Positions 50 to 9,809 of a stretch of DNA of 19,129 nt are shown here, in pieces; position 1 is the first letter of the stretch, and each line of letters begins with the position of its first letter. The DNA is from a virus, in UHGV virus genome UHGV-0124847; one strand, 5' to 3'. The notes under the pieces are model-generated. The model worked only from the letters and a program-made list of their open reading frames with translations, made no database searches and was not told the DNA's origin. Made by a program: the position numbers and the translations under genes.

Positions 50-1228
50 ATGGCTATAAGCGACACAAAACTGCGTACTATTTATGGTAAACCATATTCG
101 GGCCCACAAGAAGTGGCTGATGCAGATGGCCTCAGCGTACGAATTTCACCGAAGGGGGTCATCCAGTTCCAGTACCGCTATCGCTGGCATGGCAAGCCTA
201 ATCGCCTTGGGCTTGGTCGATACCCATCCCTGTCTTTGAAGGATGCCAGACAGATCACTGCTGACTTGCGAAAGCTCTATTTCTCAGGAACGGATCCACG
301 CACCTATTTTGAAGAGAAGGTGGAGAACTCCATGACGGTCGCCCAGTGTCTCGACTACTGGTTCGACAACTACGTCTCTACAACTCTCAGAGAAAAGACC
401 CAGGCACTTTACCGATCAACGGTTATGAAGCGCATGCATGACGCCTTCCCTAATCGTCCGGCATCTTCTATCACGGTTAAGCAATGGGTTGACCTGCTTA
501 CCGAAGAAGAAAAAGATAATCCACGCCGAGCAAGGCAGGTGCTAAGTCAACTAAGATCAGCAATTAGTTGGTGCATGCGGCGTCAGTTGATAGATAGTTG
601 CGCAATTATGAGCATCCAGCCAAGGGACTTCGGCTCCCGCGCTGAGGTAGGGGATCGGGTACTGTCGTATCACGAACTGGCTAAGATTTGGATTGCTATT
701 GAAAGAAGCCGTGCGTCTACGTCAAATAAGCTCCTTCATCAGATGCTTATGCTGTGGGGGGCGAGGCTCTCAGAGCTTAGGCTGGCAACAAAGACAGAAT
801 TTGACCTGCTGGAAAACGTATGGACCGTACCGAAAGAGCATAGCAAGATGGGTAATGTTATCCGCCGTCCAATCTTCGAACAAATTAAGCCTTTCCTCGA
901 AAAGGCCATGACAACGTACAATGATGTTCTTTTCCCTGGAGAAGACATAAACAAACCGATCAGCATCGCTGCAGCCAACCGATTCGTAAATAGAATAAGG
1001 GGAGGGATGGATATAGGTTACTGGCGAACACATGATTTCAGAAGAACGCTTGTTACACGTCTGTCCGAGATGAATGTCGAGCCTCATGTTACTGAGCGAA
1101 TGCTCGGTCATGAACTTGGCGGGATAATGTCCGTATACAATAAACACGACTGGATAGAGGCTCAGCGCAAAGCGTATGAGCTTCACGCTGATAAATTGTT
1201 CTGGCACATCAGGAACATTTCTGGTTAA
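50..1228 (+). CDS. int: Tyrosine site-specific integrase, P4-like family (N-terminal arm-binding region plus C-terminal catalytic domain)
   Basis: 392-aa ORF. N-terminus (GLSVRISPKGVIQFQYRYRWHGK...LGRYPSLSLKDAR) is typical of P4-type integrases; C-terminus carries HDFRRT and the HELGG...VY region expected for the catalytic His/Arg/Tyr residues. Sits at the edge of the phage gene block. Confidence 0.85.
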   Translation: MAISDTKLRTIYGKPYSGPQEVADADGLSVRISPKGVIQFQYRYRWHGKPNRLGLGRYPSLSLKDARQITADLRKLYFSGTDPRTYFEEKVENSMTVAQCLDYWFDNYVSTTLREKTQALYRSTVMKRMHDAFPNRPASSITVKQWVDLLTEEEKDNPRRARQVLSQLRSAISWCMRRQLIDSCAIMSIQPRDFGSRAEVGDRVLSYHELAKIWIAIERSRASTSNKLLHQMLMLWGARLSELRLATKTEFDLLENVWTVPKEHSKMGNVIRRPIFEQIKPFLEKAMTTYNDVLFPGEDINKPISIAAANRFVNRIRGGMDIGYWRTHDFRRTLVTRLSEMNVEPHVTERMLGHELGGIMSVYNKHDWIEAQRKAYELHADKLFWHIRNISG

Positions 1229-1400
1229 CGCCACCGTTAAGAATCCACCCTTCAACAGCTTCACGAAGGTATGATTTGGGGTGGGTTCTGACTGGCTTCG
1301 GAAATCCGTGCCGTTTGGTATAGTTCCAGATTGTCTGACGTGATGAAACACCGAGCTTGTTCATCACTTCTTTCTCAGGAATCAGGCTGGTATCGGTCAT
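1209..1400 (-). CDS. xis: AlpA/Xis-like small winged-helix DNA-binding protein (putative excisionase or regulator)
   Basis: 63-aa ORF with an AlpA-like pattern (KEVMNKLGVSSRQTIWNYTKRHGFPKP...W). Convergent with int, with 20 nt of 3' overlap. The true start could be the internal Met 12 codons in. Confidence 0.6.
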   Translation of the reverse strand: MTDTSLIPEKEVMNKLGVSSRQTIWNYTKRHGFPKPVRTHPKSYLREAVEGWILNGGVNQKCS

Positions 1401-1986: not shown

Positions 1987-2738
1987 TTCACCTCCTGCGG
2001 CGGCTCCGGTAGCAGCATCCAGTGGGTTACACCGCCAATTGGCTCATCGTCGTCGTACTCCAATGCGGCTATATAGAACCCGTCACGACGAGAATAAGAA
2101 ATCCCTGACATTACAATGCCATCCGAAACAACAATAATGTCACCCGTTTCTTCCGGCATTCGCTCACTACAGCTTATCCAACCATCCGGAGTTACCGGAG
2201 TTGGTCCATCGAATTCGGGCATGTCAGGACCTTTTCTGATAGCTTTAGCCAGCTCCAGCGGGTCATCGTAAAGCCAGTCGCCAGTTTGTGGGTGATTTGC
2301 TTCTGCAAGCTGCGCAGCCCATTCAAGACCATCTTTTTGACCTTGGAGATAATCAAGCGGCAACTCTTCATGATTACTTGCAGGTTCGGCACTATGAAGC
2401 ATGGCAGCGCGGCAGGCGTTCCAGCCTCTTACCTCTGCAATAGCGGCAACCGCATCAACCGCGTACATGCTAAGAGGATTAGGAATTGGTTTTTCTTCCG
2501 GTACTACTGGCGCTGGAGGGGTGGCGTAGAGTGGAACTCCTCCCCCTCCACCAGAAAATTCATTGCGAGCGTTATACTCACGACCATCTGCGTCATCACG
2601 CATCCACGCCACCGGCTCTGCTTCCAGCGATGCCAGTGCAATTTCATAAGCACGGCGCTCAATATTGTCTCGAACGTCCAGGCCGCCTATGCGCTCTTTG
2701 ATTTCTTTAATCAGTTCTTTGTCGGTTAAAGTGGTCAT
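1983..2738 (-). CDS. DUF551-domain phage protein (ea-region accessory protein)
   Basis: 251-aa ORF. C-terminal region (WISCSERMPEE...THWMLLPEPP) matches the DUF551 signature common in lambdoid prophage ea regions; Gly-rich linker GGGGG. Confidence 0.7.
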   Translation of the reverse strand: MTTLTDKELIKEIKERIGGLDVRDNIERRAYEIALASLEAEPVAWMRDDADGREYNARNEFSGGGGGVPLYATPPAPVVPEEKPIPNPLSMYAVDAVAAIAEVRGWNACRAAMLHSAEPASNHEELPLDYLQGQKDGLEWAAQLAEANHPQTGDWLYDDPLELAKAIRKGPDMPEFDGPTPVTPDGWISCSERMPEETGDIIVVSDGIVMSGISYSRRDGFYIAALEYDDDEPIGGVTHWMLLPEPPQEVK

Positions 2739-2892: not shown

Positions 2893-3591
2893 TCACTCTC
2901 CTTTGATGCGAATGCCAGCGGCGCGTGGCACATTAACTTCCACGATGCGCACAGTTGGTTTGTACATCTCAATCGCTGTCAGCCAGTCAGCGCCAGTCAT
3001 GCGCTTTTCTGCATCGCCATTAGTCCACTTAACCGGTACACCAATAGCCTTCATCGCGATTTCTATTTCCCCGGCAATGGCGCTTTTTCCGCAACCAGTA
3101 AAACCAGAAACAACGACAAGAACTTCACCTTTGGCTGGTTTTATTTCCCGTGCTTCCAGTTCAGCAATACGCTTACTCCCATCCGAGATAACACCTTCGT
3201 AATACTCGCGTTGCTCGTTGAGTTTTGATTTTGCTTCCTCAAGCTCAACACGCAGTTTCCCTACCGTTAGCGCAATATCCTCGTTCTCCTGGTCGCGGCG
3301 TTTGATGTATTGCTGGTTTCTTTCCCGTTCATCCAGCAGCGTCAGCACAGTAGCCGGACTGGCTGCGGCGATGAATTCAGCATTGGCCTGCTGTTCCATT
3401 TGGAAATCTTCATCGAAACCGCTTTCAGGATGCGCTCCTTCAATTCTGCAAATGGGAATATATCCAGCAGCCTCGCGATGAATTAGGGCATCATCACCAT
3501 CAAATCGGCTCTCTCCATATTCGAGCGACCACTCACCACACGTTGCTTTCTCTGCCTTGGCACGCAGTGCCTGATAGTCAATCTTGTTCAT
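2893..3591 (-). CDS. Ead/Ea22-like phage protein
   Basis: 232-aa ORF with a central coiled-coil (LTVGKLRVELEEAKSKLNEQREYYE) and a C-terminal P-loop-like GFTGCGKS. Position and architecture are typical of Ead/Ea22 family proteins of lambdoid phages. Confidence 0.6.
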   Translation of the reverse strand: MNKIDYQALRAKAEKATCGEWSLEYGESRFDGDDALIHREAAGYIPICRIEGAHPESGFDEDFQMEQQANAEFIAAASPATVLTLLDERERNQQYIKRRDQENEDIALTVGKLRVELEEAKSKLNEQREYYEGVISDGSKRIAELEAREIKPAKGEVLVVVSGFTGCGKSAIAGEIEIAMKAIGVPVKWTNGDAEKRMTGADWLTAIEMYKPTVRIVEVNVPRAAGIRIKGE

Positions 3592-5771: not shown

Positions 5772-6376
5772 TAAGCAGCCGCTCCTTCTAATTCATTTCG
5801 TCTGATGTTGTAAACGTCCTGCGCTTTGTGCTGCTCCGGTGTGCCTTCGAGCATCTTCCACGCTTTGGCGAACGCCTGTTTAAGCTCTTCCACGTTGTTT
5901 TTCTGCATTGCTGCGTCAGTGAATGCTTTTAGAACCTGTTCAGGTGTAGGTGATGGTTTTGATTGCTTTGCTGCTGCGTTCTGCTGATGTTTATGCTCGT
6001 CTGTATCTGCATCTTTCGCATCATCAATGCCGAATAAACCATTGAGGCAATACTTGCGTGCATAAGAGCTTGTAGCTCCCGTAACTTGTGCAGAATCCAT
6101 TCCCTTCTTGCTTTCTTCCTCTCGTGCAAGAGCGGTTGCCGTATGACTGTTTTCGCCATCGGTAATAGTTGCCGTGGCTTTCACGTAATACCGATCACCA
6201 ATCAACACAACTTCATCGCTGATTGATAAAAACAGGCCATTCAGTAACGGCTTAACACCCTCAAGAATGTCTTCGCAGCTTCTGTATTTATATTTGCCGA
6301 ATGAGTTGTATTGATTCTTTGGCGCGTTCAGATTCTCCTGAATAGCTGCCAGTCTTGCGTAAAATTCTTTGCTCAT
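5771..6376 (-). CDS. erf: Erf-family single-strand annealing recombinase
   Basis: The N-terminal region (MSKEFYARLAAIQENLNAPKNQYNSFGKYKYRSCEDILEGVKP...) matches the P22 Erf family. The track ORF begins at an upstream TTG (6406); the ATG at 6376 is preferred because the upstream 56-aa ORF ends at 6387. Confidence 0.85.
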   Translation of the reverse strand: MSKEFYARLAAIQENLNAPKNQYNSFGKYKYRSCEDILEGVKPLLNGLFLSISDEVVLIGDRYYVKATATITDGENSHTATALAREEESKKGMDSAQVTGATSSYARKYCLNGLFGIDDAKDADTDEHKHQQNAAAKQSKPSPTPEQVLKAFTDAAMQKNNVEELKQAFAKAWKMLEGTPEQHKAQDVYNIRRNELEGAAA

Positions 6377-6386
6377 ATGATTGTTC

Positions 6387-6557
6387 TCAGAATGGACATG
6401 GCCCAAGGAAATAACGCTGATTTAATACTTCGACTCGGGACAAGTTAAGGCATACCCGCATTCCTTCGCGGTCGCCATTATGGCGATACCAGAGAGCTTT
6501 CTGCGTGTACATGCGTCTCTGTAACTTGCTCTCCTTCACTGTGGTTGCAAGTGACAT
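6387..6557 (-). CDS. Hypothetical small protein (56 aa, MSLATTVKESKLQRRMYTQKALWYRHNGDREGMRVCLNLSRVEVLNQRYFLGPCPF)
   Basis: Hand-translated. Strong AAGGAG Shine-Dalgarno 6 nt upstream; in-frame stop just upstream of the ATG; lies between the kil-like gene and erf. Confidence 0.45.
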   Translation of the reverse strand: MSLATTVKESKLQRRMYTQKALWYRHNGDREGMRVCLNLSRVEVLNQRYFLGPCPF

Positions 6558-6632
6558 GAATATCTCCTTCGTTACCGATTAAATCTTTCATCTGACGAAT
6601 GAATTCTTCGTCTGACCAGTTATCTGTAAAAC

Positions 6633-6925: not shown

Positions 6926-7894
6926 TTAGTAGGTTATTTTTGTTGCGAATACTTCGCCTTTTACGATGGCTGTTATGATATTTTTAGCAACATCTTCTGA
7001 TGCACCAACCTTGATAAGGTCAGTAAGTATTTTGTTATTTACTTCTTTCCGGTGAGCTTTATCCTTTGCTCTACGCTCTTCTTCGTCCTTGATTCTTTTT
7101 TCTTCTGCTATTCTGGCTTGCTCTTTTGCTTCAGCCTCGCGACGGATTCGTTCAGCCTCCTCCTGTGCTTTTCTGCGTTCTGCTTCAATTGCCGCCTGCT
7201 TTTCTCTTTCAGCTCGTTCTGCTGCCTCTTTTGCTTCGCGCTGTGCTCGTTGCTCGGCTTCAATGCGTTCACGCTCTGCACGTTCCGCTGCGGCCTTAGC
7301 TTCTGCTTCTCGCCTTGCTGCTGCTTCAATTTCGGCTTTTGCCTTTGCTTCGGCTTCTGCTCTGGCTTTCTCTTCAGCTTCTCTTTTTAAGCGTTCTTCA
7401 TGCTCTCGCTTTTCCTGCTCCGCTTTGAGTCTTGCCTCTTCTCTTTGGCGGTCAAATTCGCGATCCATCAAAATCGCTATTTCATGGTCAGACTCAATTT
7501 GCTTTGCGAGAGCTTCAGCTGCTGCCTTAGCTTCTTCTTCGGCTTTAATCCGTGCCTGTTCCTCCTCATAATCAGTAAGAGGCTGGCGCGCCTTGGCTTT
7601 CAGTTCATCAAGGCGATCGCGCACTGTCTTGCGGTTGGCATCAATTAGCTTTGGAATTTCCTTCAGTTCAGCAACAAGGTCTTTGCCAAGACCATCGAGA
7701 TATGTTTTCGTCTGCGCAACTTTATACGCCAGAGAAGCGATCTCCTTTCTGCCCTTTGCCGTTGTGATATCAGGCACAAAGGACATAACTTCACGTTCAA
7801 CCTTTTGAAGGATTTCTTCAATCTGGTCGGCAGACTGAAATACAGTCATTGCATTTGCTTTTTCAATAACAACTAAATCTGTTACTTCACTCAT
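6926..7894 (-). CDS. Phage coiled-coil protein with a long E/A/K/R-rich low-complexity central region
   Basis: 322-aa ORF with a GGAGG Shine-Dalgarno upstream. Structured N- and C-terminal regions flank about 150 aa of near-periodic EAKAAAERAERE-type sequence, which is visibly periodic at nucleotide level. Confidence 0.7.
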   Translation of the reverse strand: MSEVTDLVVIEKANAMTVFQSADQIEEILQKVEREVMSFVPDITTAKGRKEIASLAYKVAQTKTYLDGLGKDLVAELKEIPKLIDANRKTVRDRLDELKAKARQPLTDYEEEQARIKAEEEAKAAAEALAKQIESDHEIAILMDREFDRQREEARLKAEQEKREHEERLKREAEEKARAEAEAKAKAEIEAAARREAEAKAAAERAERERIEAEQRAQREAKEAAERAEREKQAAIEAERRKAQEEAERIRREAEAKEQARIAEEKRIKDEEERRAKDKAHRKEVNNKILTDLIKVGASEDVAKNIITAIVKGEVFATKITY

Positions 7895-7906
7895 ATATCC
7901 TCCGTC

Positions 7907-7932
7907 AAAAAATTGCCCTCACACTGGAGGGC
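7907..7932 (-). terminator. Intrinsic terminator (minus strand), tL-like
   Basis: GCCCTC-cagtgt-GAGGGC hairpin followed on the minus strand by AATTTTTTG, 13 nt upstream of the coiled-coil gene start. Confidence 0.5.
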
Positions 7933-8025
7933 AAAGAAGATTTCCAATAATCAGAACAAGTCGGCTCCTGTTTAGTTACGAGCGACATTGCTCACATAGC
8001 AGACTCGCAAATCTGCTATAGGTGC

Positions 8026-8184
8026 TTATTCGCATCGCATGACAACATCAAATTTTTCGAGATTACTTTGTCGCAACAATCCCTCTTCTACGCGGTCAGC
8101 TTTTCTATAATTATCAAATTCGAAATGTTTAATTACTTCTTTCGTTTCTCGCTCTATAACTTCAACGATGTATTTCTTATTCAT
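8026..8184 (-). CDS. Hypothetical small protein (52 aa, MNKKYIVEVIERETKEVIKHFEFDNYRKADRVEEGLLRQSNLEKFDVVMRCE)
   Basis: Hand-translated. Its ATG overlaps the stop of the upstream ORF (TAATG); same strand. Confidence 0.4.
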   Translation of the reverse strand: MNKKYIVEVIERETKEVIKHFEFDNYRKADRVEEGLLRQSNLEKFDVVMRCE

Positions 8185-8453
8185 TACTCATCACCTATGG
8201 CTTTTTTGATAGCTTCGCGAGCCTTATTAACAGCTCCATACCATTCTGGATATGTTGTCGTTGTTCTATTTTCGGATTGCTTAAGTAATAACTGAAGTGC
8301 TTCAAGTAAATCCGGTGCAGCCATAGCTAATCTTCCATTTGCTACGGCCTCTTCTGTTTCTTTACCGGATAGGGCCATTCCCGGGTGTGAAAATAAAATT
8401 AAGCCTGCAAAATTGGCTTCTCGCCAATTTTTCCTAGTACCTTTAAATTCCAT
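8184..8453 (-). CDS. Hypothetical phage protein (89 aa)
   Basis: ORF in the early-left operon downstream of N, preceded by a terminator hairpin. Confidence 0.5.
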   Translation of the reverse strand: MEFKGTRKNWREANFAGLILFSHPGMALSGKETEEAVANGRLAMAAPDLLEALQLLLKQSENRTTTTYPEWYGAVNKAREAIKKAIGDE

Positions 8454-8472
8454 GTTAGCCTCTGTTGTTTAT

Positions 8473-8506
8473 GCCAAAAATAAAGGCCACCATCAGGCAG
8501 CCTTTT
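8473..8506 (-). terminator. Intrinsic terminator (minus strand)
   Basis: Minus-strand hairpin AAAGGCUGCC-UGAU-GGUGGCCUUU (two G.U wobbles) followed by AUUUUUGG; lies between two small ORFs. Confidence 0.5.
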
Positions 8507-8744
8507 TGTAAATGTTGCAGGTATCAAGTAAGTAATTAGATGGAGCGCCATAAATTATGAATTCATCGTTTGTCGGGTCCATCTCCATCTCTTGGCCTAT
8601 TGCCATTCTTGCGTCAGTGTCATCAGAGGCGAAGCATAAAACAGCCCACGCACCCATTGTTTTAAAAAGAACTGCAATTGGCTGTGGTTTTACTGAATTT
8701 GCGTTAGCGCGAAAATCATAAATCGCACTTTCATGAAATTCCAT
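8493..8744 (-). CDS. Hypothetical phage protein (83 aa)
   Basis: First ORF downstream of N on the same strand (8-nt gap). Confidence 0.5.
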   Translation of the reverse strand: MEFHESAIYDFRANANSVKPQPIAVLFKTMGAWAVLCFASDDTDARMAIGQEMEMDPTNDEFIIYGAPSNYLLDTCNIYKKAA

Positions 8745-8752
8745 ATATCACC

Positions 8753-9052
8753 TCAAATAAGTGGTTTGCTGCCTAATTTCATTTTCTGGCGACCAACACA
8801 AGTCACACCCATTTCACTGCGTGGCTTGCGGTAGTAAATACGATTCTGTTTACTCTCGACTTCTTCTGTCTTCTTGCAGCGAAGGCTTCCGAGTGATGCT
8901 GCTTTATCTGCTCTGACGCAACCAGAGAGCTTTAGCGCAATCTTTCGCGCCAGTCGCTGCTCTTGCATTGCCTGTTCACGTTGAGCCTGTCTGCGTGCTC
9001 TGCGGCGATTTCTGGCGTTATCGTCAGCCAGATATGTAATGACTACTGCCAT
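8753..9052 (-). CDS. N: N-type transcription antitermination protein
   Basis: 99-aa ORF with an N-terminal arginine-rich motif (NARNRRRARRQAQREQ). C-terminus (YYRKPRSEMGVTCVGRQKMKLGSKPLI) parallels the lambda N C-terminus (WYSKPGERGITCSGRQKIKGKSIPLI). GGAGG Shine-Dalgarno; nutL upstream. Confidence 0.85.
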   Translation of the reverse strand: MAVVITYLADDNARNRRRARRQAQREQAMQEQRLARKIALKLSGCVRADKAASLGSLRCKKTEEVESKQNRIYYRKPRSEMGVTCVGRQKMKLGSKPLI

Positions 9053-9159: not shown

Positions 9160-9200
9160 TCCCGCATTTCGGCGGGACAATCCCATCAATGTTAAAGAGC
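9160..9200 (-). promoter_or_regulatory. nutL (boxA GCTCTTTAAC plus boxB hairpin)
   Basis: Minus-strand read: GCTCTTTAACA, a 13-nt spacer, then the hairpin TCCCGC-CGAAAU-GCGGGA. The same boxA and boxB core recur on the plus strand after cro (nutR). Confidence 0.7.
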
Positions 9201-9246: not shown

Positions 9247-9333
9247 AGAATACTGTAGGTATTTTATTGTGTAAATACCCAAGGTATTTATTTTTGGTGA
9301 AATAATGATAAGCAAATGAATACAAAGGATATT
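9247..9333 (-). promoter_or_regulatory. pL promoter with OL operator sites
   Basis: Minus strand: -35 TTTACA (plus coords 9270..9275), 17-bp spacer, -10 TATTCT (9247..9252). Operator-like dyads AATAC-N5-GTATT at 9249..9263 and 9274..9288, and a degenerate one at 9319..9333. Confidence 0.55.
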
Positions 9334-9419: not shown

Positions 9420-9809
9420 TTAGTCAGCGAAGGTTAAGACGAGAATTACCTTAATGATGTCTGCTACAACAGACACGGCCATAGATAAACCAAAGACGAT
9501 CCAAGCCATAGAGATGTCTTCACTACCATCGTATAGAGTTCCGTAATCACTGGTGTAAGGCGTAAATGTCGCGCCTTGATACAACAGGTATAAGCTTGAA
9601 CCATAGAGGATAAATGCAGATATCCCTTGTATTGCTATGATCACTAGAATCATGAAACGAGCTGATCTATGCGCCCAAGCCTGGCTTATTTTTTCTGATA
9701 GAGATTTCGCAATAAAAGCATGCGCTAAGCCGTAAATTGTCGAGATTGCCAACATCCCAAAAAAGCTTGCTATAGCGGTTCCAACCATAATCGCCCCTTG
9801 CGTGATCAA
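9420..9809 (-). CDS. Small integral membrane protein (129 aa, three predicted TM helices) co-transcribed with cI
   Basis: ORF start overlaps the cI stop (ATGA-type overlap). Three long hydrophobic segments. Occupies the position of rexA/rexB in lambda; no similarity to RexB in my reading. Confidence 0.65.
   Translation of the reverse strand: MITQGAIMVGTAIASFFGMLAISTIYGLAHAFIAKSLSEKISQAWAHRSARFMILVIIAIQGISAFILYGSSLYLLYQGATFTPYTSDYGTLYDGSEDISMAWIVFGLSMAVSVVADIIKVILVLTFAD

Follow-up and report, generated by a model that had tools for sequence, protein, structure and literature searches.

Anatomy of the promoter-proximal PL operon of a lambdoid prophage: a gene in the ral slot, a two-gene cassette and a PreS small RNA homologue

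The DNA analysed here, a stretch of 19,129 nucleotides that we call the window, corresponds to the early region of a lambdoid prophage and extends from the integrase past a minus-strand PL operon, a cI-like repressor, cro/cII and O/P into the nin region. It is mosaic with HK544, CUS-3, mEp213 and Stx phages, and the best single phage record covers at most 56% of it. On the minus strand the order is PL, nutL, N, ORF1, terminator 1, ORF2-ORF3, a hairpin, PreS with tL2a, a coiled-coil gene, cIII and kil (Table 1). The three minus-strand ORFs of 83, 89 and 52 aa that the initial annotation reported downstream of N are present as described. We infer from its position that the sigma-70 promoter upstream of N is PL, and the nutL site is a putative one, assigned by its likeness to lambda nutL.

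Table 1. Features of the PL operon in the window, with the hairpins that precede PreS in three other sequences
Feature	Position	Strand	Basis and remarks
PL-like sigma-70 promoter, TTTACA-17-TATTCT	9247..9275	-	consensus scan; between cI-side genes and N
Putative nutL	9161..9200	-	boxA-like GCTCTTTAA (9200..9192) and boxB-like hairpin CCCGCCGAAATGCGGG (9176..9161), read from sequence
N antiterminator, 99 aa	8753..9052	-	phrog_271, E 2.6e-36; weak Pfam N_peptide match
ORF1, 83 aa, phrog_2471	8493..8744	-	ORF list and PHROG match; starts 8 nt past the N stop
Terminator 1	8473..8505	-	stem 8505..8482, 10 bp, then ATTTTT; first terminator of the PL transcript
ORF2, 89 aa, phrog_1273, PF27050 Phage_P22_Y8K6 ('XkdD/Y8K6')	8184..8453	-	PHROG match, homologues, RefSeq name
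ORF3, 52 aa, phrog_6949	8026..8184	-	PHROG match; start overlaps ORF2 stop (TAATG)
Strong hairpin between ORF3 and the PreS 5' end	7995..8020	-	-12.4 kcal/mol, z -3.0
PreS/LPR1 sRNA homologue ending in tL2a	7907..7993	-	86/87 identity to lambda; stem 7934..7913, U-tract 7912..7907
Coiled-coil 'TolA-like' protein, 322 aa, phrog_1376	6926..7894	-	ea10 position, next PL gene after PreS; then cIII, kil
Gene of 122-129 aa, phrog_6534	9420..9809	-	directly downstream of cI-like repressor, rexAB position
Hairpin 5' of PreS, lambda (L007)	1212-1245	-	
Hairpin 5' of PreS, Cronobacter prophage (L133)	2660-2700		
Hairpin 5' of PreS, ST104 (L005)	2905-2942		

Two genes flanking this part of the operon may be mentioned in passing. 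The product of the coiled-coil gene is rich in Glu, Lys and Ala and bears the RefSeq name 'TolA', yet its score against the TolA model of NCBIfam is far below the cutoff, and the name is probably a low-complexity artefact. The gene in the rexAB position appears by eye to encode a multi-pass membrane protein, which makes it a candidate for an exclusion or defence function in the lysogen.

The far end of the interval, beyond ORF3, is formed by an 87-nt element which, judged by its sequence, is a homologue of the lambda small RNA PreS/LPR1, with a single base change just after the stem. Its predicted folding energy is -29.2 kcal/mol (z -3.5 against shuffled sequence), and it finishes in a GC-rich stem of 8 bp followed by TTTTTT. 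For the boundaries and seed of lpr1 we relied on the deletion primers and probes of a preprint (bioRxiv 10.1101/2024.10.31.621285), which locate the 5' end at GAGCAATG and, at TGTTCTGATTATTGGAA, the seed deleted in lpr1-delta-seed; both are identical in the window. According to the same preprint, lambda LPR1/PreS lies 'between ea10 and ral' and has tL2a as its 3' end; its length is about 88 nt, cut by processing to about 68 nt, and it is Hfq-dependent and specific to the lytic cycle; and it base-pairs with the host dnaN mRNA, activating dnaN translation and boosting phage replication (bioRxiv 10.1101/2024.10.31.621285). The structure first described as a tL-like terminator is thus a real terminator, but specifically tL2a, the 3' end of a PreS gene that had been overlooked. 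That this prophage would produce PreS and act on dnaN through it is an extrapolation from lambda. In mEp234 the order is N-ORF1-terminator-terminator, with neither ORF2 nor ORF3, followed by the coiled-coil gene; it follows that the second terminator is preceded by roughly 90 nt of conserved DNA that is non-coding, and that ORF2-ORF3 is an insertion.

The PreS element occurs in 41% of complete E. coli genomes (2233 of 5426), with up to 6 copies in a genome, and among the best-ranked of the matches listed it carries no annotated feature in RefSeq E. coli records. A search of the element against Rfam 15 gave no match above any family threshold, the best permissive hit being RyhB (E 1.6) on the terminator. 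We had also considered CGCTCGTAA, inside PreS, as a second boxA/nut site, and dropped it once the element proved to be a known sRNA. Directly 5' of PreS there is a strong hairpin in every lineage examined (Table 1), with unrelated arms and z scores from -3.0 to -6.4; the approximately 125 PreS loci fall into just two types, 114 having the lambda hairpin and 11 a hairpin linked to ORF3. This hairpin, which is not mentioned in the available sections of the PreS preprint (bioRxiv 10.1101/2024.10.31.621285), may be a processing signal that sets the 5' end of the sRNA, or a stabilising signal.

More divergent PreS-like elements were seen in ST104 (L005, 2941-3045), where the element sits between a Y8K6-family gene and gene 17, and in a Cronobacter prophage (L133, ~2700-2805). 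These keep the core GCAAT..CGC.C.TAAC.AAAC...GAC..GTTCTG.TTA and differ in their terminator stems. The PreS family is therefore broader than the homologue search of the PreS paper, which used at least 92% identity (bioRxiv 10.1101/2024.10.31.621285). A separate observation concerns mEp213 (L004, 3303-3382), which has two N modules and two copies of PreS, the first copy being fused, within its terminator stem, to a boxB-like hairpin (…GCCCTCCGAAATGCGGGAA) that belongs to the second N module. PreS behaves as a discrete mosaic module.

Turning to the ORFs themselves, we conclude that ORF1, ORF2 and ORF3 are genuine conserved genes. The exact proteins are already public, each in more than 100 contigs, and all three fall in catalogued families (phrog_2471; phrog_1273/PF27050; phrog_6949), so the earlier statement that they have no recognised signatures does not hold. 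Homologues of ORF1 at 71-98% identity keep both frame and length, and comparison with those at 73-76% protein identity (~73% DNA), which also directly follow N and end in a terminator with another stem, gives a dN/dS of 0.06-0.13. ORF3 keeps its frame in homologues at 75-98% identity, with a dN/dS of 0.08 against that of one other locus (L134).

These data bear on whether the ORFs are translated at all. Some or all of them might be structured leader or spacer, with the MEF start as a duplicated module; the ORFs are short, and the window's two copies of ATGGAATTT both lie at ORF starts. We regard this as extremely improbable. Untranslated or poorly conserved frames had been named beforehand as grounds for abandoning the reading as an accessory cassette, and what we find is frames and lengths kept at 71-98% identity with dN/dS far below 1; moreover ORF2 folds confidently, the ORF1 and ORF2 profiles are unrelated, and MEFKGT is found throughout the ORF2 family. 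The conservation data effectively refute the untranslated reading.

The shared start had itself attracted comment, as an identical MEF N-terminus preceded by the same context and suggestive of a duplicated or modular start. It is correct that ORF1 and ORF2 both begin with ATGGAATTT, of which these are the only copies in the window (0.36 expected; at least 2 copies in 8 of 200 shuffles), but the motif is the start codon region itself and not upstream context. We rejected a duplicated or modular N-terminus: profile comparison with hhalign gives a probability of 0.3% that ORF1 and ORF2 are related, MEFKGT is the conserved N-terminus across the ORF2 family, and the ATGGAA of ORF1 is part of a junction also used by lambda orf28 (MEEEF...). 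The shared MEF start is coincidence or at most microhomology.

ORF1 belongs, by PHROG profile match, to a family with no assigned function. About 7% of complete E. coli genomes (403 of 5426) carry it, as do 56 phage records, among them VT2-Sakai (H0090), phage 2851, HK106, HK633 and mEp234, where it is annotated in each case as 'hypothetical protein'. With 17 clusters in an index of 5.8 billion proteins the family is very small, and an exhaustive HMMER profile search covering 1.8 billion representatives returned 7 matches at E <= 0.001, of which 2 are spurious repeat proteins. By residue count from its translation the product is small and acidic, and its predicted structure model is weak. In the closest E. 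coli relative, L001 (ZF8-1), an extra 89-aa gene (6360-6629) stands between N and ORF1, with the ORF1 5' junction kept; insertions therefore occur upstream of ORF1 as well.

The initial annotation placed the stretch in the ral/sieB neighbourhood of the PL operon, and this is borne out. ORF1 occupies exactly the lambda orf28-ral slot, with both its 5' and its 3' junction in common. Upstream of the lambda orf28-ral block the sequence is ...CCACTATTTAAGGTGATATATGGAA, and upstream of ORF1 it is ...CCACTTATTTGAGGTGATATATGGAA. At the other end, Ral terminates in ...AAAGCTGCCTGA and ORF1 in ...AAGGCTGCCTGA, and in both a 'KAA-stop' lies inside a hairpin: the last two Ala codons and the stop are part of the terminator, with the stop codon of ORF1 falling in the loop of terminator 1. 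The stem at the lambda ral end differs in sequence from that in the window, and the same stop-in-hairpin ending is found in mEp213 orf184 (...DKAA) and in ORF1 homologues of other genera, again with different stems (GCCGC/GCGGC, GGCTGCC/GGCGGCC, AAGGCCG/CGGCCTT). BLASTP aligned ORF1 with Ral at no E value up to 100, the PHROG families of the two also differ, and ORF1 has no sequence similarity to mEp213 orf184. Given the common junctions, the stop-in-hairpin ends and the absence of mutual similarity, ORF1, Ral and orf184 are non-homologous alleles that can replace one another in a single slot, and the first PL terminator marks the 3' boundary of that slot.

Terminator 1 has a predicted folding energy of -15.2 kcal/mol (z -3.0 against shuffled sequence), and in mEp234 the terminator after ORF1 is annotated as rho-independent. 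Intrinsic terminators had been noted between ORF1 and ORF2 and after ORF3, and our scan finds both, each with its T-run. The further description of each gene as terminator-flanked fits the existence of the two hairpins and fails for the 5' side of ORF1, which begins 8 nt after the N stop with no terminator between. This matters for the proposal that expression of the three genes would depend on N. ORF1 is upstream of both terminators, and its transcription should therefore not need antitermination at these two hairpins; ORF2 and ORF3 are behind a good intrinsic terminator, and for them dependence on N is plausible, both this dependence and the efficiency of terminator 1 being predicted from sequence. 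There may also be a Rho-dependent site between N and ORF1.

Searching with an exact 48-nt PreS core gave 120 IMG/VR stretches and approximately 125 PreS-core loci in all, 98 of which have N upstream. Across these 98 N-to-PreS intervals Ral is encoded in 43 and ORF1 in 8, no interval having both; the ORF2 family is present in 16 and ORF3 in 9, a 156-aa phrog_1636 protein in 12, a membrane protein (phrog_3054) in 9 and an Nmad5-domain protein in 7. Further occupants include DUF7446, a Nun-like protein and others. The description of the region as one of accessory genes is thus well founded, the interval being a hypervariable accessory hotspot. What the sequences show directly is module order and anatomy, junctions and module boundaries, terminators, the identity of PreS, homology and purifying selection.

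For ORF2, each of 80 homologues, including a 98%-identical cluster representative (P0017), has a precomputed match to PF27050, and the RefSeq name of the gene identical to ORF2 is 'XkdD/Y8K6 family phage-associated protein'; our own Pfam search of ORF2, run with a model set that does not contain PF27050, gave 0 families. The conserved motifs of the family are an N-terminal MEFKGTxGxW and an invariant AAAPDLLEAL, and its PL context holds in ST104, APC_JM3.2, mEp213 and two further loci (L129, L131). The AlphaFold2 model of ORF2 (pLDDT 87.7) has a three-stranded sheet and two long helices. As an aside, genes of this family are themselves mosaic, with AAAPDLLEAL as the joint between one of several unrelated beta-domains on the N-terminal side and one of several helix variants on the C-terminal side. 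The variant of ORF2 seen here, together with ORF3, is rare: 7 of 5426 E. coli genomes have both in full, and the ORF1-ORF2-ORF3 arrangement, covering at least 80% of the query, is in only 5 genomes. ORF3 is identical to APC_JM3.2 ATN92755.1. The genes that we can identify after ORF2-family members are ORF3 or the unrelated small ORFs c67 (phrog_10407) and c112.

Homology searches and structure prediction, which the initial annotation had proposed as the way forward, succeeded to the extent that all three proteins have catalogued families, and gave no informative fold match and no functional one. Against PDB sequences none of the three has a match, whether as single sequences or, for ORF2, as a profile. 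Fold searches, for ORF2 among others, returned no informative match, those in BFVD being only uncharacterised phage proteins. Pfam, NCBIfam and PADLOC gave nothing above noise for any of the three, with 0 PADLOC families each, and we found no functional study in the literature on these PHROG families, PF27050, XkdD/Y8K6 or P22 orf78.

One might argue that ORF2-ORF3 serves the lysogen and not the lytic cycle, as a prophage-expressed moron or as a toxin-antitoxin-like or exclusion module. The two genes have overlapping stop and start codons, are bracketed by terminator-type hairpins and are inserted as a unit, and the downstream partner of ORF2-family genes is swappable between ORF3, c67 and c112, all of which would suit such a module. 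However, the 28 nt that separate terminator 1 from ORF2 contain no sigma-70-like promoter, neither gene matches a toxin-antitoxin or defence family in Pfam, NCBIfam or PADLOC, and at every locus seen the cassette lies within the repressed PL operon and is oriented in the sense direction. We therefore think it quite improbable that the pair works for the lysogen.

A further possibility, raised in the initial annotation, is that the three ORFs are anti-restriction or anti-defence factors, with ORF1 as a functional replacement for Ral. ORF1 is exactly in the ral slot, with common junctions, and ral is in 0 of the 8 ORF1 loci as against 43 of the 90 others, an exclusion with a hypergeometric p of about 0.008 by our own arithmetic, the loci not being independent; its product, as noted, is small and acidic, and is expected to be immediate-early. 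The same accessory region also hosts Ral and orf184, the latter being the trigger of the gop-beta-cII abortive system (Silas et al., bioRxiv 10.1101/2023.04.06.535777). The study of Silas et al., which mined the ral-containing accessory region and expressed 200 accessory genes in ECOR strains, treats such regions as enriched for counter-defence genes (bioRxiv 10.1101/2023.04.06.535777; Nat Commun 2025, PMC12373910).

It is this same study that weakens the case. From its Supplementary File 3 we find that UDP0060 is mEp234 AFM76313.1, 96% identical to ORF1, and that UDP0149 is the APC_JM3.2 protein to which ORF3 is identical; UDP0047, the membrane protein of the slot, and orf184 were taken from this region as well, and ORF2 was not found in the 200-gene set. 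Ral scored in the screen, but neither UDP0060 nor UDP0149 is among the cell-death or counter-defence genes reported in the preprint or in the 2025 paper (PMC12373910). In addition, ORF1 is without similarity to Ral or orf184, and none of the three ORFs has a functional match in PADLOC, Pfam or PHROG. The label of anti-defence factors thus finds neither a defence-library nor a Ral match to stand on, and we treat it as speculation from position; as a reading of the three ORFs it is in our opinion rather unlikely. We are similarly doubtful of a narrower version, in which ORF1 is an immediate-early counter-defence or host-takeover protein that replaces Ral, acts on a new target, and was missed as that target was absent from the strains and phages of the screen. 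If Ral replacement were true, ORF1 would stand in for Ral in ~7% of E. coli genomes and in the Stx2 phage VT2-Sakai.

The explanation that we favour, to which we give a probability of about 75%, is that we are looking at the promoter-proximal accessory section of the PL operon of a lambdoid prophage, built of independently exchangeable modules. From this arrangement we infer the timing of expression, N dependence and protein function as follows. When PL fires on induction, an immediate-early N-ORF1 transcript would be made that stops at terminator 1, ORF1 being an alternative occupant of the orf28-ral slot that would be co-transcribed with N. ORF2-ORF3 is a two-gene cassette, with its overlapping stop and start, inserted between terminator 1 and PreS. 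N acting at nutL would then allow read-through of terminator 1 into ORF2-ORF3, PreS and the later genes, and only then would ORF2-ORF3 be expressed. PreS would arise by termination at tL2a, by processing or by both, and, following the lambda precedent, would act on dnaN via Hfq. The three proteins would be non-essential accessory factors that most likely modulate functions of the host or of competitors early in lytic growth.

Our view of the region as a whole is that it is an ordinary mosaic accessory stretch of a lambdoid PL operon, essentially already known and catalogued, and nothing here indicates a new kind of system. The main value of the analysis is a correction of annotation, in that the tL-like terminator is a PreS sRNA gene; if it is read as just tL, the region is misjudged. 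For phage biology, what is of use is that ORF1, Ral and orf184 are interchangeable alleles, and that in each of them the stop codon is embedded in the first PL terminator. Since Stx2 phages of O157:H7 carry ORF1, a defined function for it would have some interest for medical microbiology.

Comparison with known systems puts these modules in context. In the accessory regions studied by Silas et al., the scoring genes from this region are Ral and orf184 and not the window's genes. Members of PF27050 Phage_P22_Y8K6, such as P22 orf78 and ST104 ORF18, have motifs in common with ORF2 and, like it, map between N/ral and cIII/17 of the PL operon; ST104 ORF18, which lies between ral and gene 17, bears the annotation 'similar to P22 orf78'. 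ORF2 differs from these relatives as a short N-terminal variant, of 89 aa as against 95-98 aa. With lambda orf28-ral, ORF1 has in common the upstream junction …CCACT(T)ATTT(G/A)AGGTGATATATGGAA, and our survey shows ral and ORF1 to be mutually exclusive, while Ral is without sequence similarity to ORF1 and, in contrast to lambda, this prophage has no terminator between N and ORF1. The neighbours of PreS here are ORF3 and the coiled-coil gene, in place of the ral and ea10 of lambda, and the hairpin directly upstream is an unrelated sequence, of the ORF3-linked type. The position of PreS in the PL operon is nevertheless alike, after the ral slot and before the ea10 slot, and the whole of the seed, the stem and the U-tail are the same.
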